DNA of 35,398 bases from Thermoplasmatales archaeon SW_10_69_26. Its GTDB lineage: Archaea; Thermoplasmatota; SW-10-69-26. Below, one piece after another: positions 2,488-35,108 of the stretch. How positions within the stretch are numbered: position 1 is the first letter of the stretch; each line of letters opens with the position of its first letter. A model generated the notes under the pieces. The model searched no databases, was not told the origin of the DNA, and saw only the letters and a program-made list of their open reading frames with translations. Location: positions 19,344 to 54,741 of the forward strand of contig PXUB01000039.1 of the NCBI GenBank assembly GCA_003009755.1. Reading direction: 5' to 3'. The position numbers and the translations under genes were made by a program.

Positions 2488-2536
2488 GGCTCGAACGGCA
2501 AGGCTAAAATAGGGGCCCATCTTCAAGACGTCCCAG

Positions 2537-3511
2537 ATGGTGCTCCCCTCGTTGCCCGAGCCCCTGCTGCTGGCGGGAGCCTTCGTAGGCATGGGCTTGC
2601 TCGGGTTCGGGGCCGTGTGGACGGACCGTCGCCACCACTGGCCTCGCATCGCTGGCTGGATGCTGTTCGGCCTCTACTGGCCGTTCAAAGCCCAGCACTA
2701 CTTCGCCATCGACGATCCGTTCAACGCCGTGCTGGCGCTGGCTGCCCCGCTGTTGACCGGCTACATCGCCTACCACGAGTACCTGTCGTGGAAGTGGGGC
2801 GAGCGCCCGGTCGCGCTGACCTGGCTGGCCGGCGCCACCTTCGTCGCCGCGTCGACCTACTTCCTCCTGTTCGAGATCACCGCCATCCAGGAGGAGATCA
2901 TCTACTGGACCGGCAAGGAGACCGCGTGGCTGACCGATACCGTGTTCGGCACGAACTCGATGGCCTACCAGTCCCCGACCGTGGACCCCCAGGACGGCTA
3001 CCGACCCACGCACATCTGCCTGGCCGAGGGCTACCAAAGCTCGGTCACGAGCCAGTTCTGCGGCGCGGAAGGGGCCGCCAGCTCCTGGTCGGGTGCCGCC
3101 TCGCAAGGTTTCCCCTACTACGCCGTGACGATCGTGTTCGCCTGCACCGCCTTGCAGTCGATCATGATCTTCGTCGGCGCGATCGCCTTCACCAAGGCCG
3201 ACACGGTGCGGAAGCTGAAGGCCTACGCCCTCACGGTCCCCACCATCTACGCGCTGAACCTCTTCCGCAACGCCGGCATCATCTACGGGTACCGCGTGAA
3301 GCAGTGGTCGATGTTCGGCATCGACTCCTTCACGTTCATGCACAGCTACGTGGCCAAGCTCGGCGCCATCCTCGCGCTCGTCGGCATCGCCTTGGCCGTG
3401 TTCCGTCTGCTGCCGGAGCTGCACGAGAACATCCTCGACGTCCTGTCCTTGCACGAACGCGAGCAGGCCAAGCCACCGTCCCCGCGCTCCGGCACCCCCA
3501 CCGAGACGTGA
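2537..3511 (+). CDS. artA: Archaeosortase A (PGF-CTERM-processing)
   Basis: Multi-pass membrane protein with exosortase/archaeosortase motifs IVFACTALQS (catalytic Cys), NLFRN (Arg) and MHSYVAK. The C-terminal LLPELHE..D is also ArtA-like. Confidence 0.85.
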   Translation: MVLPSLPEPLLLAGAFVGMGLLGFGAVWTDRRHHWPRIAGWMLFGLYWPFKAQHYFAIDDPFNAVLALAAPLLTGYIAYHEYLSWKWGERPVALTWLAGATFVAASTYFLLFEITAIQEEIIYWTGKETAWLTDTVFGTNSMAYQSPTVDPQDGYRPTHICLAEGYQSSVTSQFCGAEGAASSWSGAASQGFPYYAVTIVFACTALQSIMIFVGAIAFTKADTVRKLKAYALTVPTIYALNLFRNAGIIYGYRVKQWSMFGIDSFTFMHSYVAKLGAILALVGIALAVFRLLPELHENILDVLSLHEREQAKPPSPRSGTPTET

Positions 3512-3515
3512 TCGG

Positions 3516-4112
3516 ATGCGGCTGGCACAGGGATGGCTACCGTGGACCGCCGTCCCCCTGCTGGGTTCCCTGCTCGCCGCACTGGTATGGTGGCCCGCCG
3601 CCCTCGCGCTCGCGGCGCTAACCGTGTTCGTCGTCTGGTTCTTCCGCGACCCCGACCGCCAACCCAGCGAGGGCATCGTCGCCGCCGCCGACGGCCGCAT
3701 CCAGGAGATCGACGGCCGGGCGGTCACGTTTTTGAACCTCCACCACGTCCACGTCGTTCGAGCCCCGTACGAGGGCACGATCGAGACCGTCGAGCGCGTC
3801 TCCGGCGGTCGCCTGCCCGCGTTCCTGAAAGGGGCCGAGAAGAACGGAGGCGTCGCGATCGTCGCTGACACCGAATGGGGCAACCGCAGGATCGACCTCA
3901 AAGCTGGAGCCATCGCCCGCCGAGCCGTCTCCTTCGTCGACGAAGGAGACCACGTCGCCAAGGGCGAACGCATCGGCATGATCCGGTTCGGCTCCCGCGT
4001 CGACGTCGACCTGCCCGACCCCGTCCGACGGGAGGTCGCGCCCGGCGACCGCGTCACCGCCGCCGAGACCACGATCGCCACACCGACCGACACGGGGGAC
4101 GCCTCCCCGTGA
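3516..4112 (+). CDS. pssD: Phosphatidylserine/archaetidylserine decarboxylase proenzyme
   Basis: Motifs WFFRDPDR, AAADG, HVVRAP and GERIGMIRFGSRVD (self-cleavage Ser); N-terminal membrane anchor. Confidence 0.9.
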   Translation: MRLAQGWLPWTAVPLLGSLLAALVWWPAALALAALTVFVVWFFRDPDRQPSEGIVAAADGRIQEIDGRAVTFLNLHHVHVVRAPYEGTIETVERVSGGRLPAFLKGAEKNGGVAIVADTEWGNRRIDLKAGAIARRAVSFVDEGDHVAKGERIGMIRFGSRVDVDLPDPVRREVAPGDRVTAAETTIATPTDTGDASP

Positions 4113-4822
4113 GCCTGCCCGACCCTCGCCGCTGGGTCGCCGACGCGATGACGCTGGCCAACGGCATCTTCGGGTTCCTCTCCGTTCTCACGTGGGCGGT
4201 GGAGCTGGGCCCACTGTCGAGCCTGCCCGACCCGGCCGTCGCCGCCGCCTACATCGGTCTCGGCGTCGTCGCCGACGGCCTCGACGGCGTCGTCGCCCGC
4301 GCCTGGGGCTCCACCGGGGTCGGGGACGCCCTGGACTCGATCTGCGACGCCTTGACGTTCAGCGTGGCGCCCGCCGTGTTCCTCGTCAACGTGAACGAGA
4401 TGGTCGACGGCCTCGTGTTCCGCTCGGCTCTCTCCCTGGCCGCCGTGGCGCTCGTGCTCGCCGGCATGCTGCGCCTGGCCCGCCACCGCACCGGCGGCTC
4501 GACGGCCGTCTTCCACGGCCTGCCGACCCCCTGGAGCGCCGCCGCCTTGATCACCGTGCTGCTGCTCGGGATGCCCGGCTGGATCAGCGTCGGCCTGGCG
4601 TTCCTGCTCGCCGGCCTCAACCTCAGCCCGGTGCCCTACCCCAAGACCCGCGGCGCGGTGTTCACGCGCGCCGCGCTGGGCCTGGCGGTGGCCAGCCTCC
4701 TCGTGATCGGCGGCCTGCTCGTCTTCCAGCAGACGCCCGACTCCCTGCTGTGGCTGGCAGCGATCGTCGCGATCGGCCTCGTCCTGTTGGCCCCGATCGC
4801 TGCACCGACCGGGGAGACCTAA
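4109..4822 (+). CDS. pssA: CDP-alcohol phosphatidyltransferase (archaetidylserine synthase)
   Basis: Signature DGLDGVVAR...GDALDSICD, plus RLAR and FHGLPTP. GTG 4109 overlaps the pssD stop (GTGA). Confidence 0.88.
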   Translation: MSLPDPRRWVADAMTLANGIFGFLSVLTWAVELGPLSSLPDPAVAAAYIGLGVVADGLDGVVARAWGSTGVGDALDSICDALTFSVAPAVFLVNVNEMVDGLVFRSALSLAAVALVLAGMLRLARHRTGGSTAVFHGLPTPWSAAALITVLLLGMPGWISVGLAFLLAGLNLSPVPYPKTRGAVFTRAALGLAVASLLVIGGLLVFQQTPDSLLWLAAIVAIGLVLLAPIAAPTGET

Positions 4823-4903
4823 TCAACAGCCTTTTGCCGGAGACTCCGTTATGGAGTAGTAACAACGCGCCTCCTTTCGGGAGGCGTTTGGAGCACAAAT
4901 GCG

Positions 4904-5449
4904 ATGCCTCACGCAGCCAAGATCGGCATCACCGGCATGCCGTCTGTGGGGAAAACCCAGACCGTCCTCAAGATCATCGAGAAGCTCGAGGCCAAAGAGG
5001 TCATCGTCGGCGGGATGGTGACCGAGGCGATCGAGGAAGGTGGCCAGCGCAAGGGCTTCCACATCCAGGACTGGCTCACCAAGCAGAAGGACACGCTCTC
5101 GCACGTCGACTTCGACAGCGAGTTCCGCGTCGGCAAGTACGGTGTGGACCTCGAGGTGCTCGAAGAGCTCGGTGTGACGTCGATCCATCGAGGCATCGAG
5201 GACGCCGAGGTCGTGGTCGTCGACGAGGTCGGCAAGATGGAGATGGAGTCGGAGAACTTCTGCGCGGCCGTCAAGGACGCGCTGAACTCCGACAAGGCGA
5301 TGATCATGACGCTGCACAAGAAATCGCGCAACCCCTTGCTGCAGGACATCCGTCGCCGCGACGACATCCGGATCCTCGAGGTCACCCCGATCAACCGCAA
5401 CCTGTTGCCCTACAAGATCGAGAAGCTCCTCGAGGGCGACGTCCTCTAG
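4904..5449 (+). CDS. Nucleoside-triphosphatase THEP1 family (NTPase_1)
   Basis: P-loop ITGMPSVGKT, RKGF, RVGKYGV and Walker B VVVDEVGKME. Confidence 0.9.
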   Translation: MPHAAKIGITGMPSVGKTQTVLKIIEKLEAKEVIVGGMVTEAIEEGGQRKGFHIQDWLTKQKDTLSHVDFDSEFRVGKYGVDLEVLEELGVTSIHRGIEDAEVVVVDEVGKMEMESENFCAAVKDALNSDKAMIMTLHKKSRNPLLQDIRRRDDIRILEVTPINRNLLPYKIEKLLEGDVL

Positions 5450-8779: not shown

Positions 8780-8889
8780 CCCCGCGGCGCTCGCTCAGGC
8801 GCCCGGGACCGTCAAACGCTTAAGGGAAGCTCCTGTAGGGGCTCCCGGTGGGACGCCGGCGACGTGCGCCGCGCTCCCGGTGCCACCGT

Positions 8890-8974
8890 GCGGGGATTGC
8901 CTAGCCTGGTAAGGCGCAGGATTGCTAATCCTGTGGCTGATAAAGCCCCGCGGGTTCGAATCCCGCTCCCCGCG
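8890..8974 (+). tRNA. tRNA-Ser(GCT), long variable arm, no encoded CCA, no intron
   Basis: Acceptor stem GCGGGGA/TCCCCGC; D arm TAGCCTGGTAAGG; anticodon arm CAGGA-TTGCTAA-TCCTG with GCT at 8924-8926; T arm GCGGG-TTCGAAT-CCCGC; discriminator G. A promoter-like AAACGCTTAAG lies at 8814-8824. Confidence 0.97.
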
Positions 8975-8975
8975 T

Positions 8976-9188
8976 CAGCAGATACCGCCCAAGGGTCGAG
9001 GGAGCGGGATGAGAACCCTTGGGTTTGTGTTCAGACGCGGTGAAGACCGCCCGCGTCTGAACACGCGACGGATCGGCAGACATGGAGCGATCCGTCTGCG
9101 TCTCGAGGCGCGGTGACGATGAGCGCGTCTCGAGATCGTACGAACCGACGGAAGGGCGCGGTTCGTACGTGAATCCCGCTCCCCGCGT
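8976..9188. repeat. tRNA-associated multi-hairpin element bounded by an inverted and a direct copy of the tRNA 3' end
   Basis: 18-bp direct repeat GAATCCCGCTCCCCGCGT at 8958-8975 and 9171-9188; inverted copy of the T-arm/acceptor at 9000-9018 (17/19); four internal stems of 14, 9, 12 and 11 bp. Confidence 0.85.
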
Positions 9189-9191
9189 GCG

Positions 9192-9204
9192 TTTTTCTTT
9201 CTTT
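9192..9204 (+). terminator. Archaeal oligo-T terminator after the tRNA and element
   Basis: TTTTTCTTTCTTT is the first T-rich tract downstream of the tRNA. Confidence 0.65.
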
Positions 9205-9641
9205 AGTGCCTCTCCGTCCGCCGAGGAGGGGACAGAGAAAATCTACGTGCATGAAAGAACCCCCTCGGCAGCGACGCAAGCCCCGGTGTCATCGATCTTG
9301 GGCGCGGTTGGGTCTTCTCGCAGGACCATCGTCGCTTGACGGGTTCCGACAAGGTCGTGGTGGACGTCGCTGGGCGGACCTGACGGATCGGGATGCAGGG
9401 GCGCGGTGGTGGTCCCCGGGACGACCCAGCTCGATCGTAGAACGGGGCAGGGAGGCTGCGACCGGAGATCGGCGACCACGTCCGCAGGGGCTCAGGGCCC
9501 GACAGCGCCGACGCTGGTCTTCGGGGAGGGGGTGTGGATCACGGAGAAGTCAGCGAGAGGAAGCCATCGGGCGCGAGCCCGAGGTAGCATCGTCACAACC
9601 TGCGTTACCCTCGGTGCCCGAAGGCACCGGGGCTGGGAACA

Positions 9642-17503: not shown

Positions 17504-19531
17504 CTGGCCCTCAAGCCGGAGCAACTCACGCGCCTGGCGATCGTCGCCCACGACTCTCGCCAGGACGCCATCATCGAGACCCTGCACGATCTGCAGCTCG
17601 CTCACATCCAAGAGTACGCGAAGGAGGAGGCCGAGGATCTCGACATCGGGGATCCCCGGCCGGAGGCCTCCCAAGCCAGCCAGCGCCTCGTCCGCATCCG
17701 CGGCCTGCTACACACGCTGGATCTCGACGGCGAACCCTCGCGCAAGCTCCCGACCGACTCCGTCCGGCAACGCCTCGACGACCAGCTCGACACGATCGAG
17801 ACCGAGGTCCACCAGGCCAAGCAACGCCGCGACGAGGTCGAACGCGAGCTCAACCAGACCGAAGACCGCATCGAGCGCCTGCGCCCGTTTCGACACCTGC
17901 CGCTGGCGTTCGAGGACTACCACGGCTACGAGACCCTCGAGGTCTTCGTCGGCCGCGGTCCCGAGGAGCTCGAGAGACGCCTCGCCGGCGAGCTCGACCG
18001 CTACGATCACTTCGAAGGCGGCGAGCTCGACGCCGTGTTCGTCCACGAGGACGAAGCCGACCGCGCCCGCGACGTGCTCGTCCGGGAGGGCTTCCGCAAC
18101 GTGGACGTCCCCGCCGAGGAGGGCGCCCCCGACGAAGAGCTCCAGCGCGCCCGCAGCGAGGCCGAAGACCTGCGCGACGAGCTGGCTCAACGTGAGGCCC
18201 AGCTCGCCCAGCTCGCCGACCAGTACGGCGACCTGCTCCTCTGCGCCGAAGAGGACCTGTCCATCACCGTCGAGAAAGCCGAGGCCCCGCTGGAGTGGGC
18301 CGCCACCGACCGCACGTTCATCTGCGACGCCTGGGTCCCCACCCAGCAGCTCGACGAGGTGAAGACCGCCCTCACCTCGGCCACCAACGGCAACGTCCAC
18401 TTCGAGACGCTCGACGATGGAGACCCCGACGTCCACCACCGCGAGGAGGAGCCGCCGACCCGGTACGACCACCGGGACTCGGTCGAACCCTACGACTTCC
18501 TCATGGAGACCTTCTCCACGCCGCGCTACAACGAGATCGATCCCACCCTCATCCTGTCCCTCGTCTTCCCGCTGTTCCTCGGGTTCGTCATCGGCGACTT
18601 CGGCTACGGGCTCGTCATGGTGCCCTTGGGCATCTGGCTGTACCGTGGCCTGGGTGCCAAGTCCGAGGCGGCCCGTTCCCTCGGGTTCGCCATCGCCGTC
18701 GCCGGCGTGTGGTCGATCCTGTTCGGCGGGTTGCTGTTCAAAGATGCCCTAGGAATCCCCATGTACCACGCCGAGCACGGGCTCAGCTGGCCCTCGCTGC
18801 TCGGCACGATCGGGCTCGCCGAACCCGCGATCCACAAGATCGAAGCCGGCGGCGTGCGCGCCATGCTGGCGCTGTCCCTGCTGGCAGCCTTCGTGCACCT
18901 GTTCCTCGGGTTCATCTTCGGCTTCGTCAACGAGATCGGGCACAACACCAAGCACGCCATCGCGCAACTCGGTTGGATGGTCACGCTGACCGGGATCGTG
19001 CTGCTCACGATCGTCCACGGCCCGGAGAACATGATCTCCGGCTACCTGGTCAACGGCTTGGACCTGGGCCAGGCGCACTTCGATCACGGGCACGTAGAGA
19101 GCATGACGTTCAGCCCGTTCGCGCAGATGCTGCCCTGGTACTTGCTGGGGCCGGGCGTGCTCGTGCTGGTGCTCACCGAAGGCCTCATGGGCCTCATGGA
19201 GACGGTGAGCCTGCTGGCCAACGTCATCTCCTACACCCGGTTGGCCGGGATCGCCGTCGCCAAGGGCGGCATCGTGGCCGCGTTCAACGAGATCTTCCTG
19301 GAGCGGATGGTCCTGGACCCCAGCACTGGGATCCTGGTCATCGTGGCCGGGTTCGCGCTGTTCGCGATCTCCCAGTTGCTGATGTTCGTGCTGGGCTTGC
19401 TCAGCGGGGGTATCCAGAGCATCCGTCTCAACTACGTCGAGTTCTTCCTGAAGTTCTTCGAAGGCGGCGGGGAACGCTTCTCGCCGTTCGGACGAGACCG
19501 TCAGTACACGATCGGTAACGAATCGAGGTGA
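17504..19531 (+). CDS. atpI: A-type ATP synthase subunit I (a), 675 aa, apparent CTG start
   Basis: The frame is open from CTG 17504 (ALKPEQLTRLAIV...IIETLHDLQLAHI). Motifs PRYNEIDPT, GDFGYG, SYTRL and IRLNYVEFFLKFFEGGG. Confidence 0.92.
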   Translation: MALKPEQLTRLAIVAHDSRQDAIIETLHDLQLAHIQEYAKEEAEDLDIGDPRPEASQASQRLVRIRGLLHTLDLDGEPSRKLPTDSVRQRLDDQLDTIETEVHQAKQRRDEVERELNQTEDRIERLRPFRHLPLAFEDYHGYETLEVFVGRGPEELERRLAGELDRYDHFEGGELDAVFVHEDEADRARDVLVREGFRNVDVPAEEGAPDEELQRARSEAEDLRDELAQREAQLAQLADQYGDLLLCAEEDLSITVEKAEAPLEWAATDRTFICDAWVPTQQLDEVKTALTSATNGNVHFETLDDGDPDVHHREEEPPTRYDHRDSVEPYDFLMETFSTPRYNEIDPTLILSLVFPLFLGFVIGDFGYGLVMVPLGIWLYRGLGAKSEAARSLGFAIAVAGVWSILFGGLLFKDALGIPMYHAEHGLSWPSLLGTIGLAEPAIHKIEAGGVRAMLALSLLAAFVHLFLGFIFGFVNEIGHNTKHAIAQLGWMVTLTGIVLLTIVHGPENMISGYLVNGLDLGQAHFDHGHVESMTFSPFAQMLPWYLLGPGVLVLVLTEGLMGLMETVSLLANVISYTRLAGIAVAKGGIVAAFNEIFLERMVLDPSTGILVIVAGFALFAISQLLMFVLGLLSGGIQSIRLNYVEFFLKFFEGGGERFSPFGRDRQYTIGNESR

Positions 19532-19538
19532 ATCGAGA

Positions 19539-19766
19539 ATGGTTTCCGCAGGATTGGCAGGTATCGGAGTTGGGCTCGCTGTTGGACTCGCTGGTCTCGC
19601 CACGGGCTGGGCCATGCGTGACATCGGTGCCGCAGCCGTCGGCGCCACCGCCGAGAACGAGGAGATGTTCGGTCGAGGCCTCGTCCTCATGGTGATCCCG
19701 GAGACGATCGTCCTCTTCGGGTTCGTCATCGCGTTCCTCCTCCTCGGCGAGATCCCCGGTATGTGA
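19539..19766 (+). CDS. atpK: A-type ATP synthase subunit K (c), single hairpin
   Basis: Two TM helices, GAAAVGA loop and IPETI with the ion-carrying Glu. Confidence 0.93.
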   Translation: MVSAGLAGIGVGLAVGLAGLATGWAMRDIGAAAVGATAENEEMFGRGLVLMVIPETIVLFGFVIAFLLLGEIPGM

Positions 19767-19791
19767 ACCGGCGCGAGCCAGGAGAGCAACG

Positions 19792-20355
19792 ATGGGACTC
19801 GAGCAGGTCATCGACGACATCCGAGAGGAAGGCGAGGCTGAGGTCGAGGCGATCCGTGCCGAGGCCGAGGAGGAAGCCCAAGCCATCCGCGAGGACGCCG
19901 AGAACCGAGCCCAGGAACGCAAGCAGGAGATCCTGGACGAGGCCGACGACGAAGCCGAGGCCGAGCGCCAGCGCATCGTCGCGAACGCTCAGCTGCAAGC
20001 CAAGAAGAAGCGGCTCAACGCCGAATCCGACGTCCTGTCGTCGGTGCGCTCCCGCGTCGAGTCCCGGTTGGCGAACCTCGACGAGGACGACCGCCGCGAG
20101 CTGATCGAAACCTACATCGAGGGGTCCGGCGCCGACGAGCTCGGCGACGGGGCCAAGGCCTGGGGTCGATCGGAGGACCAGGCCATCCTCGAGGATCTCG
20201 GCTTCACCTTCGAGGGCGAGATCGACTGCGTCGGCGGCACCGTGCTCGAGAGCCCGGAGGGCGACATCCGCGAGGATCTCCGGTTCGACGAGGTTCTCGA
20301 CGAGATCTGGCGCGAGGAGATCCACGAGATCGCCTCCGACCTCCTGGAGCGGTGA
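19792..20355 (+). CDS. atpE: A-type ATP synthase subunit E
   Basis: MGLEQVIDDI...IDCVGGTVLES; operon position. Confidence 0.92.
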   Translation: MGLEQVIDDIREEGEAEVEAIRAEAEEEAQAIREDAENRAQERKQEILDEADDEAEAERQRIVANAQLQAKKKRLNAESDVLSSVRSRVESRLANLDEDDRRELIETYIEGSGADELGDGAKAWGRSEDQAILEDLGFTFEGEIDCVGGTVLESPEGDIREDLRFDEVLDEIWREEIHEIASDLLER

Positions 20356-20357
20356 CG

Positions 20358-21419
20358 ATGTTCTCCGGAGTGGGCGAGTTGCTGGGCATGGGATCCTCGG
20401 GCGGCGGACGCTCGAACTACCCCTACGTGACCGCACGCGTGCGATCGATGAAGACCCACCTGTTGCCCGAGGAGGAATACGCACGGATGGTCGCTCGCGA
20501 CGTGCACGAGATCGCCCGCTCCCTGCAGGAGGGCCGCTACCAGGAGCAGATCGACCGGCTGTCCTCCGAGTACAGCGGTGCCCAGCTCATCGAGCAAGCG
20601 ACCTGGCAAGGCATGGGCAACGACTTCCAGCGCATCCTCGAGTGGTGCGAGGGCCCGCTCGAGGACATGGTGGCCCGCTACTTCGAGCGGTTCACCGTCT
20701 ACAACCTGAAGACCGCGCTCCGCGGCGCGCGAAGCGGCGCCACGTCCACGCAGTCCGAGCAAGCGCTCGTCCCCGTCGGCCTCGTCGCCCGCGACGACTG
20801 GCGAGCCGCGCTCAACGCGGACTCGCTGCCCGAAGCGATCGAGGCGCTGCGCACGCTCCCGTACGGGGACGTGATCCAGAACATGGACGAGGAGCCGTTG
20901 CCCGTCATCGAGAACGCGCTGGACCACGCCTACTACGACCGGTTGATCTCGTCGGTCGAGGCCGACGATCGGCCGCGCGAGGCCTACCTGACGTTCCTCC
21001 GCCGCGAGATCGACACCATCAACCTCAAGAACATCTTCCGCGCCAAACACGCGGGCATCGAAGAGTACGAGCACGTCGAGGGCGGCGAGGACGTCGACGA
21101 GGAGCTGGCCCGTCGCATCCTGCAAGCCGACTGGGAGGAGGTCTCCGCCATGCTCGACGAGACGGCCTACGGGGACGATCTCCGTCCGGCCGTCGAGGAC
21201 TACCGCGAGTCCGGTGACCTGAACCGGCTCGCCAACGAGCTCGAGACCCTGCACCTGGAGGAAGCCGACACCTTCGGCCACCGCTACCCGCTTTCCATCC
21301 TCCCGATCATCGACTACGTGCTCCGCAAAGAGCGAGAGGTCGACCGCCTGCGCATGATCGCGTTCGGCAAACAGGCCGGCCTCTCCCGAGACGAGATCGA
21401 ACAACTGGTAACGGACTGA
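20358..21419 (+). CDS. atpC: A-type ATP synthase subunit C
   Basis: NYPYVTARVRSMK, YNLKTALRG, EIDTINLK and KEREVDRLRMIA. The start could be 20352, 20358 or 20388. Confidence 0.92.
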   Translation: MFSGVGELLGMGSSGGGRSNYPYVTARVRSMKTHLLPEEEYARMVARDVHEIARSLQEGRYQEQIDRLSSEYSGAQLIEQATWQGMGNDFQRILEWCEGPLEDMVARYFERFTVYNLKTALRGARSGATSTQSEQALVPVGLVARDDWRAALNADSLPEAIEALRTLPYGDVIQNMDEEPLPVIENALDHAYYDRLISSVEADDRPREAYLTFLRREIDTINLKNIFRAKHAGIEEYEHVEGGEDVDEELARRILQADWEEVSAMLDETAYGDDLRPAVEDYRESGDLNRLANELETLHLEEADTFGHRYPLSILPIIDYVLRKEREVDRLRMIAFGKQAGLSRDEIEQLVTD

Positions 21420-21426
21420 GCCCACG

Positions 21427-21735
21427 ATGGACGAGAAACAACTGGCTGCGATCGGTCCCGAGGACTTCGTGCTCGGGTTCCAACTCGCGGGCGTCGAGGA
21501 GGCCCGGGAGACGACCCCGGCGTCCTACGAAGAGGACATCCAAGCCCTCCTCGACCATCCCGACGTGGGCATCATCATCGCGCGCCACGAGGACGTGGCG
21601 TCGCTTCCCGACAACGTACGGTCGGAGGTCACCGGTTCCGTGGACCCCGTCGTCATCCAGCTGGGTGGCGGAGCCGGCGAGGGCCTCCGAGAACAGATCC
21701 GATCAGCGATCGGTATCGACCTCATGGAAGAGTGA
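21427..21735 (+). CDS. atpF: A-type ATP synthase subunit F
   Basis: [17 protein letters not shown]...[13 protein letters not shown]. Confidence 0.93.
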
Positions 21736-21740
21736 TCCAC

Positions 21741-23501
21741 ATGGCCATGGCAGACCAACAGACCGAGTCCGGCGGCCGCATCACGCGCGTGGCTGGGCCC
21801 GTCGTGACCGCCGAAGGCCTCACCAGCGGCATGTACGACGTCGTGTACGTCGGCGAGGAGGAGCTGATGGGTGAGGTGATCGAGATCGACGGCGACAAGA
21901 CCCTCATCCAAGTGTACGAGGAGACGGGGGGCATCAAGCCCGGCGAACCCGTCGAGGAGACGCACCAGCCGCTCACCGTCGACCTCGCCCCCGGGCTCGT
22001 GTCGTCCGTGTACGACGGCATCCAGCGCCCGCTCGACACCCTGCGCGCCGAGATGGGCGACTTCATCGACCGCGGCGTCACCGCGCCCGGCGTCGATCTC
22101 GACAAGACGTGGGAGTTCAACCCCACCGTCAGCGAGGGCGACCCGGTCGAGGCTGGCGACGTGATCGGCAAGGTCCCCGAATCCCCGTCGATCACCCACC
22201 GCGTCATGGTCCCCCCGAACGTCGAGGGGACCGTCGCCGAGATCGAGCAAGGCGAGTTCACGGTCGAGGAGACCGTGTGCCGGCTCGAAGACGGCACCGA
22301 GATCCGGATGCGGCAGGAGTGGCCGGTCCGCGAGGCCCGTCCCTACGAGACCAAGCACCGCCCGACGGTGCCCCTCATCACCGGGCAGCGCATCCTGGAC
22401 ACCTTGTTCCCGATCGCCAAGGGCGGCACGGCCGCGATCCCGGGCCCGTTCGGCTCCGGGAAGACGGTCACCCAGCAGTCCCTGGCTAAGTGGAGCGACG
22501 CCGACCTCGTCGTCTACATCGGGTGCGGCGAGCGCGGCAACGAGATGACCGAGGTCCTCGAGGAGTTCCCCGAGCTCGAGGACCCGCAGACCGGTAACGC
22601 GCTGATGGACCGCACCGTCCTCATCGCGAACACCTCCAACATGCCGGTCGCGGCCCGCGAATCTTCGATTTACACAGGGATCACGATCGCCGAGTACTAC
22701 CGCGACATGGGGTACAGCGTGGCCCTCATGGCCGACTCCACGTCGCGGTGGGCCGAAGCGATGCGCGAGATCAGCTCCCGGCTCGAGGAGATGCCCGGCG
22801 AGGAGGGCTACCCGGCCTACCTGGCGGCCCGCCTGGCCGAGTTCTACGAGCGAGCTGGCCGCGTCGAGACGCTGAACGGCAAGGAAGGCTCCGTCACCGT
22901 GATCGGGGCCGTGTCCCCGCCCGGCGGTGACTTCTCCGAGCCGGTCACCCAGAACACGCTGCGCATCGTCAAGGTGTTCTGGGCCCTGGACAGCGACCTC
23001 GCCCAACGCCGGCACTTCCCGGCGATCAACTGGCTCGACAGCTACTCGCTGTACGAGTCCGACCTCGAAGGGTGGTTCGAGGACGAGGTCGACGAGGAGT
23101 GGGGCGACCTGCGCACGCAGATCATGGACATCCTGCAGGAGGAGTCCGAGCTGCAGGACATCGTGCAGCTCGTCGGATCCGACGCGCTGCCCGAGGACCA
23201 GCAGCTCACGCTCGAGGTTGCCCGCCTCATCCGTGAGGTGTTCCTCCAGCAGAACGCCTTCCACCCGGTCGAGACGTACAGCGCTCCCCAGAAGAGCTTC
23301 AAGATCCTCAAGGGCATCCAGCGGTTCAACGAGCTCGCGCGCGAGGCGCTCGACGAGGGCGTCCCCGTCGCCGAGATCAAGGACACCAGCGCGCCCGCCG
23401 AGCTCGCGCAGGCCCGCAACGAAGAGGACTTCGATCCGGTCTACGAGGACGTGATGCAGATGATGGAAGACGAGTTCGCGGAGCTCACGGAGGCGGTCTG
23501 A
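21741..23501 (+). CDS. atpA: A-type ATP synthase catalytic subunit A (no intein)
   Basis: [25 protein letters not shown] and [12 protein letters not shown]. Confidence 0.97.
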
Positions 23502-23502
23502 G

Positions 23503-24936
23503 ATGACGAAGGAGTACAAGACGGTCTCCGAGATCTCCGGCCCGCTCGTGTTCGTCGAACGAACCGAACCGGTCGGCTTCAACGAACTCGTCGAGATCAC
23601 CATGCCCAACGGCGACCGGCGCCGCGGGCAAGTGCTCGACACGAGCGAGGACTACGTCGCCGTGCAGGTGTTCGAGGGCACGACCGGCATCAACCGCGAT
23701 GCCTCGGTCAAGTTCCTCGGCGAAACCCTCAAGCTCCCGGTGAGCGAGGACCTGCTCGGCCGCATCCTCTCCGGCAGCGGCGACCCGCTCGACGGCGGTC
23801 CCGACGTCGTGCCCGAGGAACGGCTCGACATCGAGGGCGCCGCGATCAACCCGTGGGCCCGCGAGGAACCCAACGAGTGGATCCAAACCGGGATCAGCAC
23901 GATCGACGGCATGAACACGCTGGTCCGCGGTCAAAAGCTCCCGATCTTCTCGTCCAGCGGGCTCCCGCACAACGACATCGCGCTGCAGATCGCCCGCCAA
24001 GCCCAGGTGCGCGGCACCGACGAGGAGTTCGCCGTCGTGTTCTGCGCGATGGGCATCACGCACGAGGAGTCCTCGCAGTTCATGTCCCAGTTCGAGCAGA
24101 CCGGCGCCCTCGAGCGCGCGGTCGTGTTCCTCAACCTGGCCGACGACCCGGCCATCGAGCGCATGATCACCCCCCGGATGGCGCTCACCGCGGCCGAGTA
24201 CCTGGCCTACGAGCACGACTACCACGTGCTCGTGATCCTCACCGACATGACCAACTACTGCGAGTCGCTGCGCCAGATCGGCGCCGCTCGCGAAGAGGTC
24301 CCCGGTCGCCGCGGCTACCCCGGGTACATGTACACCGACCTGGCGATGCTCTACGAGCGCGCCGGCCGGATCGAGGGCCGCGATGGCACCATCACGCAGA
24401 TGCCGATCCTCACGATGCCGGGCGGCGACATCACGCACCCGATCCCGGACCTGACCGGGTACATCACCGAGGGCCAGCTCGTGGTCGATCGCGACCTCCA
24501 CCAGAAGGGCATCTACCCCCCGATCGACGTGCTGCCGTCCCTGTCCCGCCTGATGGAGGGCGGCATCGGGGAAGGCCTCACGCGCGAGGACCACGGCGGC
24601 GTCAGCGACCAGTGCTACGCCGCGTACGCTGAGGGCAAGGACCTGCGCGGCCTCGTCAACATCGTCGGCGAGGAGGCGCTCAGCGACCGCGACCAGGACT
24701 ACCTGGACTTCGCCGACGCCTTCGAGGACGAGTTCGTCCGCCAAGGCCGCGAAGAGGACCGCGCGATCGAGGAGACGCTCGGCATCGGCTGGGAGCTGCT
24801 CGCCAAGCTCGACACCGACGAGCTCAACCGCATCGACCGCGAGAACGTCGAGACCTACCACCCCGAGCTCGGATCCGCGTCCCCGGACGAGTCGGCCGCC
24901 GACGCGTCCGGCGAAGAGCTCGAGGCCGAGGCCTGA
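23503..24936 (+). CDS. atpB: A-type ATP synthase subunit B
   Basis: [23 protein letters not shown] and [15 protein letters not shown]. Confidence 0.97.
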
Positions 24937-24959
24937 CCCCCGACGCGAGGCTCTCCCCC

Positions 24960-25643
24960 ATGGACCCCAAGGACGTCAAACCGACCCGGATGAAGCTCCT
25001 CGAGCTCAAGGACCGCATCGAGCTCTCCGAGAAGGGCCACAACCTGCTCGAGATGAAACGCGACGGTCTCATCATCGAGTTCTTCGACCTGCTCGAGGAG
25101 GCCAAGGACGCCATGACGAAGCTCGAGGACAAGCACGAGGACGCCACCCGCGCCCTCGCCATCGCCCAAGCCGTCGAGGGCACCATCCCCGTGCGATCGG
25201 CGGCGCTGTCGCTCGAGAACAGCCCTCGCATCGAGATCGGGACGAAGAACATCATGGGCGTCGTCGTCCCGGAGATCGAGGGGGAGAGCGTGCACACCGA
25301 CGTCTCCGAACGCGGGTACGGCACGATCGGCACCTCGCCCCGCATCGACACGGCCGTCGACGCCTACGAGGACCTCGTCGACGCCATCATCGCGGCCGCG
25401 GAGGCCGAAACCGCTCTCCGCAAGCTCCTCGACGAGATCGAGAAGACCAAGCGCCGCGTGAACGCGCTGGAGTTCAAGGTCATCCCCGAGCTCGAGGAAG
25501 CCCGCGACTTCATCGAGTTCCGGCTCGAGGAGCAGGAGCGCGAGGAGACCTTCCGTCTCAAGAAGATCAAGGACAAGAAAGAAGAAGAGGAGAAGGCCGC
25601 CCGCGAAGAGGCGGCGCGCCGTCGCGAGGAAGCCGAGAGCTGA
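24960..25643 (+). CDS. atpD: A-type ATP synthase subunit D
   Basis: [16 protein letters not shown] and TKRRVNALE. Confidence 0.95.
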
Positions 25644-31062: not shown

Positions 31063-33081
31063 TTAAGGCTTGCGGGCTCGCACCACCCACGCGGCCCCGA
31101 ACAGGAGGCAGAGGAGGGCGAGCGCGCTCGGGCCGGGGGTTTCGGCCGCCTGGTCCCCCGTGGCCGCTCCGTCGGTGGGCCGGATCGGTTCCAGCTTCGA
31201 GGGCTCGGCGTCGGGCGCGTCCTCGGTGTCGAGCTGGTCCTCGGTGGGCAGATCCACCGTGGCGGTCGACCCGGGGGTGGCCTCGGTTTCCGTGGCGCCC
31301 TCGTCCGTCGTCTCGGCCTCGTCCTCGCCGGCCTCGTCCTGGGTCGTCTCGTTGGTGTAGGTGAACTGGCCCAGGTTCAGGGCGTCGACCTGCACGGAGA
31401 GCGGTTGCCGACCCGCGTCGACGGGCACGGTCAGGTTGCTCGTGGCCGTACCTGCGGCCGGCACCTCGAGGCCGCGGGCGGCGCCGGGTTCACCGTCCAC
31501 CAGACCCAGCAGGGTCGCCGGTCGGGGGATCGGGCTCGGGTTGGTGACGTCGACCGTGATCCGTGCCTGTTCGCCGGTGGATGCCACGTCGACGGGGTCG
31601 ACGGTGAGGGGGTCGGTGCCCTCCTCGATCGTCCAACCGTCGACGGTGATCGCGCGCGTCACGACGTGGCCGTCGGCGCGATGGATCGACAGCGGGTGGG
31701 TGCCCTCGTCCGGCAGATCGGTGACCAGCGTCCCGTTGGCGTCGGTGAACCCCTGCGAGCGGTCGTCGAGGTAGACGGCCGCGTCGGACAGCGGGCGATC
31801 GCGGCCGTCGGTGAGGGTCCAGTGGACCTCGGGACCATCGTGCACGGCGGCGTGGACGCCGGCGGTCGCATGGATCGCGACCGGCTGGTCCGTGCGGGCC
31901 AGCGAGACCCGGGCCTCGCCAGGGTCCTCGTCGGCGAGGTCGATCGTCCAGCCGGTCTCGTGGCCTCGGACGTCGGCCGTGGCGCCGGTCACGGTCGGCG
32001 AGAGGGCGCGCAGACGGTCGGGGCCGGTCAGGTCGACGCGGAGGGAGGCCGAGCCTTCGGCCACGTGCAGCGGGTGGATGGCCAACGTGGGATCACCGAC
32101 GGTGATCTGGGCGGGCAGATCGATCCAGCGGTCGCCCCCGGCCGGCTGCACGCTGATCCGGTGGGTGCCCAGCGGGAGGTCGTCGAGCGTGTCGGCGGGC
32201 ACGCGGGCCCGGCCCTCGCGGACCGGGACCGAGGGGCTGGCGGCCCCGTCGGCGCCCCTCAGACGCAGGGTGCCCTGTGCGGGCGCCCCATCGCGCGTGA
32301 CGTTGACCTCGAGCGGGCCCTGGTCCAGACCTCGGAACCAGGTCGACCGGTCCATGGAGGCCTCGAGCCCGATCAACCGGACGCTGGGCATGGTGCCGGC
32401 GTTGTCGGTGGTTCCCTCGCGCACGTACAGGTAGTAGGTGCCGGGCTCGAGCGAGGCGTCCGAGCGCAGCAGGGTCGTGTTGTCGCGGGCCTGGACCTCG
32501 CCGGCGGTATCCGAGGGCGGCGTGTAGGCACGCATCGGTAACCCTCGGACGTCGAGGTAGCCTTGGCGGATCTGGGAGGCGGCGTCCTCGTCGACGAGAT
32601 AGGCTTGGACATCATCGTCGCCCTCGATCTGGGCGGAGACCTCGATCTCGTCGCCGGCGTACACCTCGTCGTCGGCGACGGCGACGGCCATCTGGCCGCC
32701 GGCCGCCTTGTCGGTATCGCCAACCCCGCCGACACCGCCCGTCATCATGAACCCGTACACGGCCAGGCCTGCGACCAGGGCGGCCACGAGCGCGCTCGCC
32801 AAGGCCAGGTAGAACCGGGTCCGCTGGGGGTTGAGCAAGCGCTTGCCGCGACCGGTGAGGTGGTAGTAGACCCACAACCGGTCGTCCTCCTGGCGTTCGA
32901 CCAGGCCGACCTCGGTCAGCTTGTCCAGGTGCTCGTGCACGGTCGCCTTGCCCAGATCGAGCTCCCGCGAGAGCTCGGTCACCGTCATGCGCTGGTCCTG
33001 GAGCAGGGAGAGGATGTCCCTGCGGGTGTCGGCGGCCAGCACCTTGATCAGATCCGGTTCGAGCGGGAGCTCCTCGGGCAT
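31063..33081 (-). CDS. ArsR-type winged-HTH protein with a TM helix, large extracellular beta-rich region and PGF-CTERM-like sorting tail (672 aa)
   Basis: HTH: IKVLAADTRRDILSLL...TVTELSRELDLGKATVHEHLDKLTEVGLV...WVYYHLTGRG. TM: FYLALASALVAALVAGLAVYGF. Several N-x-T sequons, an acidic T/E linker, and tail ETPGPSALALLCLLFGAAWVVRARKP. Confidence 0.85.
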   Translation of the reverse strand: MPEELPLEPDLIKVLAADTRRDILSLLQDQRMTVTELSRELDLGKATVHEHLDKLTEVGLVERQEDDRLWVYYHLTGRGKRLLNPQRTRFYLALASALVAALVAGLAVYGFMMTGGVGGVGDTDKAAGGQMAVAVADDEVYAGDEIEVSAQIEGDDDVQAYLVDEDAASQIRQGYLDVRGLPMRAYTPPSDTAGEVQARDNTTLLRSDASLEPGTYYLYVREGTTDNAGTMPSVRLIGLEASMDRSTWFRGLDQGPLEVNVTRDGAPAQGTLRLRGADGAASPSVPVREGRARVPADTLDDLPLGTHRISVQPAGGDRWIDLPAQITVGDPTLAIHPLHVAEGSASLRVDLTGPDRLRALSPTVTGATADVRGHETGWTIDLADEDPGEARVSLARTDQPVAIHATAGVHAAVHDGPEVHWTLTDGRDRPLSDAAVYLDDRSQGFTDANGTLVTDLPDEGTHPLSIHRADGHVVTRAITVDGWTIEEGTDPLTVDPVDVASTGEQARITVDVTNPSPIPRPATLLGLVDGEPGAARGLEVPAAGTATSNLTVPVDAGRQPLSVQVDALNLGQFTYTNETTQDEAGEDEAETTDEGATETEATPGSTATVDLPTEDQLDTEDAPDAEPSKLEPIRPTDGAATGDQAAETPGPSALALLCLLFGAAWVVRARKP

Positions 33082-33143
33082 CCGTGCACCTATCCGACGG
33101 TGTCCATACCTACCGGCCCGTCCTACAAATACGTCTGGGGGGT

Positions 33144-33161
33144 GTTCGGTGGGCACCGAAC
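33144..33161. promoter_or_regulatory. Candidate operator: perfect 8-2-8 palindrome in the divergent intergenic region
   Basis: GTTCGGTG-GG-CACCGAAC, 12 nt downstream of the AT-rich TACAAATA box (33124-33131). Confidence 0.5.
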
Positions 33162-33173
33162 GCCGGAGCCCAC

Positions 33174-35108
33174 CTGCCGCGGGCGGCCGGTGGTTCCCGA
33201 GGTTGGGCATCGATCGCGATCGTCGTGGCCTTGCTGGCCGGCGGCCCGGCAGGATCGGCCTTGGCCGACCACGTCGACCACGAGCGCGAAGACGAATGGC
33301 ACATCACGCACACCGTGAACGCCACCGTCGTCGACAACTACGCGACCGTACGTGTCGGCGTGGAGATCGTGAACGAAGGCCCCGATCCCGAGTTCCCGTT
33401 CCGGGTCGACCTACCCGAGGACGCCTACGTGACCGGGCTCACGGTGACACGTGACGGGAAGACCTACGAGGCCGACATCCAGGCCGCCGAGGAGGCTCGC
33501 GAACGGTACGAGCAGGCTCGCGAGGAGCATCGGTCGGCGGGCCTGGTCGAGGAGGCCGACGAGGGCGTGTATGCGTACAACATCAACGTGGAAGGCACTG
33601 AGACGGTGCAAGCGACGCTGACCTACGAGCGCTACGTGACCGCCGACGGCGGGGTCTACGAGCTCGGCCTGAGAGCACCGGCCACGCAACGCGGGATCGA
33701 CGAGGGCGCCACGATCGAAGCCCACGTCCAGCACCGGGCGGGGCTGGAGACCTTGCAGGCCGCCCCCGAGGCCGAGATCACCCGCTCGGGTGACTCAGGG
33801 CACGTCGTCCGCCACGTCGACCCTCGCGGCCAAGACGAAGCCAGCGACCTCCGCGTCCGGTACGAGCTGGCCCAGACGCCGCCTGGGGGCGCGATCGAGG
33901 CCGCCGTCGAGGATGGGACCGGGTACTTCGCGCACCGGTTCCGAGCCTCCGAGACGATGGACCGCGTCCCGGTGGACGTCGCCCTCGTGCTCGACACCAG
34001 CGGCTCGATGACGGGGGACAAGATCGCCCAGCTCGAGCAGGCCACGCGTCGCCTCGTCGACGACCTGGAACCCCGCGACCGGCTGGCGTTGACCTTCTTC
34101 GCCGACGACACCGATCGGCCCTGGGAGGGGTTCGCGTCCGTCGATGCGAACACGACCGACCGTGCCTTCGACGCCCTCGAGCGGATGCGCGCCACCGGGT
34201 CCACGAACATCGAGCAGGCGATCGCTGACGGCTTCGCGCCCCTCGGCGATCTCGAGACCTCCGTCGAACGCTTGCCCGTCGTCGTGTTCCTCACCGACGG
34301 CCGCCCGACGACGGGGGTCACCGGCGAACACCAGCTGCGCACCGCGGCCCTCGAGGCCAACGACGCCGGCGCCCACGTCTTCTCCCTGGCGTTCGGTGCC
34401 GACGCCGACTGGGGTCTCGTGCACGGGCTCGCCCAGGACGGCGAGGGCCTGGCCCGCCACGTCCAGGGCAGCGATCACGCGGAGGTCGAGCTCGGCTCGT
34501 TCCTGACCGCGCTCACCACGCCCGTCCTCACCGACGTCCAGCTCGACCACACCCACGCCGAGGAGACCTGGCGCGTGGGCGCCCCGGTCCTGTTCGCCGG
34601 TGGCGAGCTGTTGTACGTCGGCACCTTCGACCCCAACCGGACCACGCTCGAGGCGCAGGTGACGGCCCGCGATGACCAGGGCCGGCGCTCGTGGAACGTC
34701 TCCGAGGCCGTCGAGGAGACCAACGCCAGCTACCTGCCGGATCTGGTCGCCTACCAGCGCATCCAGGCGCTCGAGGCCCAGATCCAAGCCGAGGGCGGCA
34801 ACGCGACGCTGGAGGAGCGAGCGCTCGAGCTCGCGCTCGAACACGGGTTCGTGACCGACCAAACGAGCCTCGTCGTCGACCTGCCCGCCTCGTCCAACGA
34901 GGAACCCGAGCCACAGACGCCCGACCACGAGCCCACGGACGCAGCCGATGCGACACGAGGGGCCCAGCCCGCGGATCGATCAGCCACGGATGGAGCCGAC
35001 GAGCCCACCGAGGCCGATGAACAGCCCGCCCAAACCCCCGGTGTCGGTGCAGCCCTCGCGGTGGCCCTGCTCGCCATCGGAGCCGCGGTCGCGCGATCGC
35101 GGCCGTGA
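33174..35108 (+). CDS. Secreted VIT + vWA domain surface protein with a PGF-CTERM-like tail
   Basis: Signal peptide ending SALA; VIT motifs (LPEDAYVTGL, EEARERYEQA, SAGLVE); vWA MIDAS LDTSGSM, GSTNI, FLTDG; ITIH-like LALEHGFVTDQTSLVV; tail QTPGVGAALAVALLAIGAAVARSRP. The start is uncertain (CTG 33174 preferred). Confidence 0.85.
   Translation: MPRAAGGSRGWASIAIVVALLAGGPAGSALADHVDHEREDEWHITHTVNATVVDNYATVRVGVEIVNEGPDPEFPFRVDLPEDAYVTGLTVTRDGKTYEADIQAAEEARERYEQAREEHRSAGLVEEADEGVYAYNINVEGTETVQATLTYERYVTADGGVYELGLRAPATQRGIDEGATIEAHVQHRAGLETLQAAPEAEITRSGDSGHVVRHVDPRGQDEASDLRVRYELAQTPPGGAIEAAVEDGTGYFAHRFRASETMDRVPVDVALVLDTSGSMTGDKIAQLEQATRRLVDDLEPRDRLALTFFADDTDRPWEGFASVDANTTDRAFDALERMRATGSTNIEQAIADGFAPLGDLETSVERLPVVVFLTDGRPTTGVTGEHQLRTAALEANDAGAHVFSLAFGADADWGLVHGLAQDGEGLARHVQGSDHAEVELGSFLTALTTPVLTDVQLDHTHAEETWRVGAPVLFAGGELLYVGTFDPNRTTLEAQVTARDDQGRRSWNVSEAVEETNASYLPDLVAYQRIQALEAQIQAEGGNATLEERALELALEHGFVTDQTSLVVDLPASSNEEPEPQTPDHEPTDAADATRGAQPADRSATDGADEPTEADEQPAQTPGVGAALAVALLAIGAAVARSRP

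Follow-up and report, generated by a model that had tools for sequence, protein, structure and literature searches.

A probable archaeosortase A lipid-anchor operon, artA-pssD-pssA, in an uncultured Thermoplasmatota archaeon

Archaeosortase A (ArtA) has been tied to two lipid enzymes, PssA and PssD, by genetics in Haloferax volcanii, where loss of HvPssA (HVO_1143) or HvPssD (HVO_0146) blocks ArtA-dependent processing and lipid labelling; as that account presents it, no other system has been used to test whether processing by ArtA depends on PssA and PssD (Abdul-Halim 2020, PMC7157517). In the model put forward there, ArtA forms a thioester at its active-site cysteine, Cys-173, which is resolved by the amine of archaetidylethanolamine, and the model as worded leaves undecided whether PssA and PssD act via lipid or via protein contact (PMC7157517). 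The starting hypothesis for these experiments was the syntenic arrangement of the genes artA, pssA and pssD: artA adjoins pssA both in Methanosarcina and in a number of further methanogens (Haft 2012, as cited by Abdul-Halim 2020, PMC7157517), and in several Methanosarcina species pssD is flanked by artA and pssA, while over 70 haloarchaeal genomes are described as having the three genes unclustered (PMC7157517). Here we analyse a cluster of artA, pssD and pssA in a 35.4-kb stretch of DNA from Thermoplasmatales archaeon SW_10_69_26 (the whole stretch is called the window below), and argue that it is probably the archaeosortase A lipid-anchor operon of this uncultured Thermoplasmatota archaeon.

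The locus resembles both described systems and departs from each in particular ways. Its three enzyme families and the pathway expected of them are those of H. volcanii, but the three genes are here packed together with a gap of 4 nt and an overlap of 4 nt. With the Methanosarcina cluster, as far as the text of the paper alone allows the comparison, it has in common the same three families side by side, pssD in the middle and the same proposed role, that of successive steps to archaetidylethanolamine beside the archaeosortase; the differences are that the phylum is Thermoplasmatota, that PssD and PssA have diverged so far that they stay below the cut-offs of the NCBIfam 'protein sorting system' models, and that the candidate sorting tails mostly read PGP, PGL, PGA or PGV and rarely PGF. 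The operon itself is an ordinary archaeosortase A lipid-anchor cluster whose synteny is already in print. An initial annotation of this DNA had stated that PssA and PssD are required for ArtA-dependent anchoring in H. volcanii, where the genes lie apart, and the passages of PMC7157517 cited above bear out both points; the same annotation took the operon as new genomic evidence from outside Halobacteria, a claim forestalled by the cluster that this paper reports for Methanosarcina and other methanogens.

The window has a GC content of 69.4%, and its contig belongs to a 2.8-Mb genome bin with a completeness of 95%. All three genes are on the forward (+) strand: artA (2537-3511, ATG start) encodes an archaeosortase A of 324 residues, pssD (3516-4112, ATG start) an archaetidylserine decarboxylase of the phosphatidylserine (PS) type of 198 residues with a hydrophobic N-terminal segment, and pssA (4109-4822, GTG start) an archaetidylserine synthase of 237 residues, a CDP-alcohol phosphatidyltransferase of the serine type. 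After the artA stop codon (TGA, 3509-3511) come TCGG and the pssD ATG at 3516, and the pssA GTG at 4109 shares 4 nt, as GTGA, with the pssD stop codon (TGA, 4110-4112), so the gene number and spacing of the initial annotation are confirmed by the sequence. For pssA the GTG was preferred over an ATG at 4148 because starting at the latter would cost the protein a conserved A-D-x-x-T-L block at its N-terminus, whose D12, T15 and L16 do not vary in alignment A3. At this locus only the three + strand frames have coding-type composition (GC content of 0.86-0.94 at third and 0.47-0.56 at second codon positions). An open reading frame (ORF) of 670 codons on the minus strand over the same DNA fails this composition filter and was rejected as a product of the high GC content.

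The first gene is an archaeosortase A by score. Its product reaches 141.1 bits against TIGR04125 (exosort_PGF_TRM, cut-off 75), of which it is the sole match in its own genome, compared with 28.6 bits for the XrtH model, 24.6 for XrtR, 22.3 for heimdallarchaeosortase and 16.4 for ArtB, and its closest named relatives are annotated archaeosortase A proteins from metagenome-assembled genomes (MAGs) of Thermoplasmatota. C203 (within ACTALQS), R244 (within NLFRN), H269 and K274 are invariant in alignment A1 (16 sequences). We take C203 as the probable active-site cysteine and putative equivalent of Cys-173 of H. volcanii ArtA. R244 stands at the place of the conserved arginine of the exosortase signature region. 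As a separate feature, a loop of ~45 residues that contains Cys is inserted between membrane segments at residues ~140-190; within alignment A1 it is common only to the nearest relatives, P0003 and P0011.

The second gene product matches PF02666 (PS_Dcarbxylase) with 97.8 bits against a cut-off of 22, and stays below the cut-offs of the NCBIfam models NF003685 (179.5/183), NF003683 (185.6/244), NF038088 (159.2/240) and TIGR00164 (135.2/230). Four conserved blocks, FFRD45P, PAD59G, VH79V and FG159S160R, stand out among 21 sequences, all of which keep F42, R44, D45, A58-D59-G60, H79-V80 and S160-R161; G159 is present in 19 of the 21, and F-G159-S160-R161 is the predicted self-cleavage site that would give rise to the pyruvoyl group. 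With a single sequence as query, a PDB search gave no match for PssD at E ≤0.01. The PssD profile A2 matches the beta chain of Escherichia coli PS decarboxylase (7cnw/6l06, E 1.5e-4), with the FFRD45P, PAD59G and VH79V blocks aligned.

For the third gene product, which matches PF01066 (CDP-OH_P_transf) with 36.5 bits (cut-off 22), the best NCBIfam matches are the four serine synthase models tested (NF038087, TIGR04217, NF038086 and TIGR00473); the scores all fall below cut-off (82.5/240, 79.3/200, 79.1/200 and 77.6/107 bits), and the inositol-phosphate synthase model gives 21.8 bits. Since the NF038086 cut-off is reached in none of 41 related genomes, the NCBIfam models for PssA and PssD do not cover this phylum. 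A PDB search with the single sequence found only the entries for the PS synthase of Methanocaldococcus jannaschii (MjPSS; 7b1k/7pow), and profile A3 scores 126.7 bits against MjPSS (7b1k, E 1e-35), as against 30.4 for the phosphatidylinositol synthase 6h53, 23 for AF2299 and 19.2 for the phosphatidylglycerolphosphate synthase 7drj. The 15 sequences of A3 share D56, D59, G60, R64, G72, D76, D80, R122, L123 and A124 without exception, and with the nearly invariant A63 the residues from D56 to D80 in this list make up the full signature D-x2-D-G-x2-A-R...G-x3-D-x3-D. The spacer within this signature is 7 residues in PssA and 8 in MjPSS. Among the serine- and chloride-site residues of MjPSS (Ser63, Arg101, Arg104 and Phe105, as listed in PMC8633023), equivalents of Ser63, Arg101 and Arg104 are kept, the R-L-A-R block aligning with the two arginines. 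The identities that the initial annotation gave to the three genes thus stand, with ArtA over its cut-off, the PssD residues kept and the PssA profile nearest MjPSS. That annotation had also considered that the first gene might belong to a different exosortase subfamily, or the third be an inositol- or glycerol-phosphate transferase; the first is ArtA by score and the third is of the serine type by profile.

We surveyed the gene order in three samples of the phylum, whose counts are descriptive only because related genomes are not independent. Among 41 genomes, the window's own and 40 relatives, 22 have artA, pssD and pssA in that order on a single contig and strand; artA and pssD are adjacent with pssA elsewhere or off the contig in four, pssD and pssA are adjacent with artA elsewhere in nine, and all three genes are dispersed in one. 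Two further genomes have artA alone (one match is weak), and three lack artA and pssD (one has a faint pssA match). The second sample was the best 80 artA loci of reference genomes, with titles that are nearly all Thermoplasmata, Thermoplasmatales, Poseidoniia or marine group III: pssD follows artA in 71 of them, the sequence stops no more than 6 nt from artA in three of the remaining nine, and pssA comes next in 51 (42 by tblastn, and nine by a Pfam test on the following ORF that covered 24 frames from 18 loci). The third comprised 151 genomes of the phylum, requested at ≥90% completeness and counted from the result tables. Both artA and pssD are present in 92 of these, artA without pssD in 15, pssD without artA in five and neither gene in 39; the two are adjacent in 50 of the 92, over 16 families, and are kept apart in families f26 (21 genomes) and f20 (eight genomes). 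The recurrence of the same order in relatives' genomes and loci places the artA-pssD-pssA layout above chance. It also answers the concern, voiced in the initial annotation, that the clustering might be unique to this genome, and the neighbourhood survey proposed there, run within Thermoplasmatota, finds the order widespread.

Some loci in these samples are of interest in their own right. Thirteen of the 15 genomes with artA and without pssD fall in family f11 (e.g. G036, G062, G145 and G151); they carry an ArtA over cut-off and have no match to PS decarboxylase, and the ArtA of this family may use another acceptor or may only cleave. Other DNA lies between artA and pssD in L071 (1.1 kb), L080 (3.5 kb) and G091:C162 (~4 kb). 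L008 and L041 are titled as bacterial MAGs (Proteobacteria and Neomarinimicrobiota) and bear archaeal artA loci with 46% and 36% identity to the window ArtA; the contigs in question were probably binned or labelled wrongly.

The coupling between the genes is conserved as well. Stop/start overlaps of 4 nt occur in many relatives at both the artA/pssD and the pssD/pssA junctions, and in 31 of the 71 loci in which pssD follows artA the two genes form one unbroken frame of ~510-580 codons (L019-L026, L028, L029, L032-L035, L038-L045, L047, L054, L059, L060, L062, L066-L068 and L078, with the artA match from ~4001 in most). The fused loci belong mostly to low-GC genomes of the marine group II/III type, 26 of the 31 having at most 46% GC, and since open frames of that length do not arise randomly at such GC contents, the fused frames of low-GC loci are not due to chance. 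All four fused ORFs that were scanned carry TIGR04125 at the N-terminus and the PS decarboxylase domain at the C-terminus, and pssA follows directly after the fusion in at least 24 of the 31 loci (17 by tblastn, seven by PF01066 on the next ORF). The marine fusions are thus made of genes orthologous to those of the window, in the same order, the difference being that what is one frame there is two genes here, with a stop codon and 4 nt between them. A prediction of the complex of ArtA (A1) with PssD (A2), run without controls, scored under the mark in both runs and speaks neither for nor against binding.

In the window, artA, pssD and pssA probably share one promoter ~30 nt 5' of artA. A putative promoter element resembling a transcription factor B recognition element followed by a TATA box lies at 2497-2511 (+) and contains CTAAAATA at 2504-2511, 26-33 nt 5' of the artA ATG, a distance that would fit a leaderless or near-leaderless transcript. 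The TATA-like box noted in the initial annotation is therefore present, and it sits inside a block conserved with five close relatives, in whose alignment nine upstream positions are invariant (2497, 2499-2501, 2505, 2507, 2508, 2510 and 2511). It is among only five clusters of octamers with at least 7/8 A/T in the whole window, and the octamer scan found no AT-rich box between the three genes. Downstream, a T4 run at 4832-4835 comes after pssA, and 45 nt past the pssA stop codon a GC-rich hairpin (4867-4889, +; a 9-pair stem with a UUC loop) is followed by UUU. This hairpin might mark the transcript end, the folding z-score of its 91-nt stretch being just -1.4. Coupled translation of the three genes is probable because of the 4-nt gap and the 4-nt overlap.

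Taken together, these data lead us to read the locus, with good confidence, as an archaeosortase A lipid-anchor operon. PssA would convert CDP-archaeol and L-serine to archaetidylserine, which PssD, as a self-cleaving pyruvoyl enzyme, would decarboxylate to archaetidylethanolamine. ArtA, as a membrane cysteine transpeptidase, is predicted to remove the C-terminal tail of secreted proteins, in which PGx precedes a hydrophobic helix and basic residues, and to join the C-terminus so created to a lipid, in all likelihood through the amine of archaetidylethanolamine. That anchoring would need PssA and PssD, with archaetidylethanolamine as the acceptor, is inferred from the H. volcanii genetics and the published model.

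Several observations weigh against this reading. PssD and PssA are below every NCBIfam cut-off, including those of the 'protein sorting system' models NF038088 (159/240) and NF038086 (79/200); PssD of the window sits on a long branch of the PssD tree (1.46 against a median of 0.38); and the position of the serine-site residue Phe105 of MjPSS is occupied by His in PssA and in its two nearest relatives in A3. Linkage is not obligatory, seeing that 42 of the 92 genomes with both genes separate artA from pssD and that either gene occurs without the other (15 and five of 151 genomes). Co-transcription is inferred from spacing alone, and the PGF-CTERM model finds just one protein of the genome over its cut-off. 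As for the reference system, the authors call their own model speculative, name archaetidic acid as the lipid obtained from the S-layer glycoprotein, and mention that archaetidylethanolamine is reported to be absent in some haloarchaea (statements taken from PMC7157517).

The alternatives to the lipid-anchor operon concern the product of the third gene, the unity of the transcript and the purpose of the lipid pathway. Were PssA to make another head group, the operon would yield no ethanolamine lipid; the archaetidylserine synthase models under cut-off (82.5/240, 79.3/200, 77.6/107), a CDP-alcohol motif spacer one residue shorter than in MjPSS and the His aligned with Phe105 are what can be said for this. 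We regard it as very improbable, given that the four top models are all serine synthases while the inositol-phosphate synthase model scores so low, that the profile strongly favours the solved PS synthase over the phosphatidylinositol and phosphatidylglycerolphosphate synthases (126.7 bits versus 30 and 19), and that pssA is probably coupled in translation to a decarboxylase for which serine lipids are the one substrate class known. The genes could also be adjacent yet not one transcription unit, with promoters within artA or pssD driving the lipid genes. Several relatives keep pssD-pssA without artA alongside, so that the pair can own a promoter, and another AT-rich octamer, TTTTTGAA, lies within pssD at 3729-3736; but this stretch codes for the conserved Phe72 region of PssD, with a gap and an overlap of 4 nt each there is no intergenic space, the sole conserved AT-rich box stands before artA, and the fused and overlapping forms of relatives argue for a single unit, which makes separate transcription unlikely, if less so than a different head group.

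A more serious alternative is that pssD and pssA constitute the general archaetidylethanolamine pathway of the cell, and that their place beside artA reflects inherited order or co-regulation of envelope genes and no dedicated module. The operon is the genome's only ethanolamine-lipid pathway, since PssD is the only PF02666 match and just one of the four PF01066 genes resembles a serine synthase. In a PssD tree of 58 rows (region L099, with a PF02666 match and no match to the PssD profile, was left out), the sequences group by family, linked and unlinked genes interleave, and the linked state needs at least four changes on well-supported branches; an ancient anchor-specific PssD paralogue apart from a bulk-lipid one was rejected on this ground. 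Moreover, pssD-pssA pairs stand apart from artA in nine of the 41 genomes and in whole families (f20 and f24), and occur without artA in family f23. Against this reading are the artA-pssD fusions in 31 of 71 loci, the conserved translational coupling, six families that are without both genes together (f8, f14, f29, f31, f33 and f38) and the H. volcanii mutants, which by the published account phenocopy the artA deletion (PMC7157517). The two readings are compatible, as one pathway can supply both bulk lipid and anchoring, and we consider a purely general pathway a genuine possibility that the balance of these points speaks somewhat against. The initial annotation's description of ethanolamine-lipid anchoring as a dedicated module is accordingly unproven, the pair being the genome's only such pathway and the PssD tree following taxonomy.

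Second copies of pssD occur in a few relatives. In family f18 (G076, G104, G110, G137, G149 and G152; loci L091-L096) a second, stand-alone pssD has neither artA nor pssA alongside; these copies form one clade with a support of 100 that lies nearest the family's linked copies, indicating duplication within the lineage. In G158 and G167 the second copy is instead long and divergent.

Candidate substrates of ArtA are encoded in the window itself. The PGF-CTERM model TIGR04126, with four matches at E ≤0.1 and one over cut-off in the genome, has none in the window. As it matched neither of the two tail proteins there, we used a pattern of our own with controls, namely PGx, 11-22 uncharged residues and a final tail that contains two or more Arg or Lys. 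This pattern is found at the C-terminus of 29 of 1711 coding-like frames, compared with five of 8215 internal windows drawn at random from these frames, and in 31 of 13081 other frames. The residue after PG in the 29 is P in ten, L in six, A in five, F in four, V in three and S in one, so that the candidate sorting signal of this genome reads PGx as opposed to PGF.

Two of these 29 frames lie in the window, and the initial annotation's claim of substrates close by holds in so far as both encode proteins with a PGx, hydrophobic and basic tail; it lacks the backing of TIGR04126, which matches neither. The candidate at 31063-33210 (-) ends in the PGP-type tail TPGPSALALLCLLFGAAWVVRARKP. It has an ArsR-type winged-helix domain (PF12840/PF01022) at residues 57-105, hydrophobic segments at 131-160 (membrane) and 692-713, and an outer part of ~530 residues with N-x-S/T sites followed by an acidic linker; if processed by ArtA, this protein would have both ends held in the membrane. 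The candidate at 33084-35108 (+), whose true start is probably downstream of 33084, ends in the PGV-type tail TPGVGAALAVALLAIGAAVARSRP and has VIT (PF08487, 78.8 bits) and VWA (PF00092, 57 bits) domains, a signal-like segment at 41-62, an acidic linker and a hydrophobic segment at 651-672. Its best NCBIfam match is a 'marine proteobacterial sortase target protein' model (155 bits, cut-off 551), and similar VIT-VWA cargo would thus pair with a non-homologous sorting system. The logic of the archaeal system is in any case analogous to that of bacterial rhombosortase with GlyGly-CTERM and of sortase A, in which a membrane peptidase takes off a C-terminal sorting helix and the intermediate is resolved by an amine nucleophile, though the enzymes are non-homologous; the parallel with rhombosortase, as drawn in PMC7157517, includes a moiety that contains glycerophosphoethanolamine.

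The remainder of the window bears on the operon only at its border. A THEP1-type NTPase gene (4904-5449, +; NF010248, 196.9/156 bits) is next after pssA, and its product is 85-95% identical in relatives whose ArtA identity is only 67-70%. We rejected it as a fourth gene of the operon, for it follows pssA in just eight of the 80 loci and is set off by an 81-nt spacer with the hairpin. Scans of the window for tRNA genes and Rfam families found only a tRNA-Ser (GCT) at 8889-8976 (+), unrelated to the operon, and two other strongly AT-rich stretches of the window, 9192-9205 and 9238-9245, come after it. Further on, 18035-25643 (+) holds a run of co-oriented ORFs with high GC content at third codon positions, presumably an operon for an archaeal A/V-type ATPase, judging from the N-termini of the encoded proteins.

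For the phylum as a whole we put forward, tentatively and as a proposal that may well prove wrong, that ArtA and the ethanolamine-lipid pathway of Thermoplasmatota could be one physical machine in which PssD hands archaetidylethanolamine directly to ArtA, and that ArtA could read a relaxed PGx signal that does not require Phe. Our literature search, incomplete in coverage, found no report of the cluster in Thermoplasmatota, of natural ArtA-PssD fusions, of an ArtA-pathway machine or of a relaxed PGx signal. The PGF-CTERM and 'protein sorting system' models miss the phylum, and automatic annotation will therefore under-call substrates and lipid enzymes in it. Natural ArtA-PssD fusions would favour protein contact and so bear on the question that the published model leaves open; they are also reagents for asking whether decarboxylase and archaeosortase act in contact. 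Order, coupling and fusion, kept over many families of an uncultured and globally abundant phylum, lend the H. volcanii model support that is both comparative and independent.

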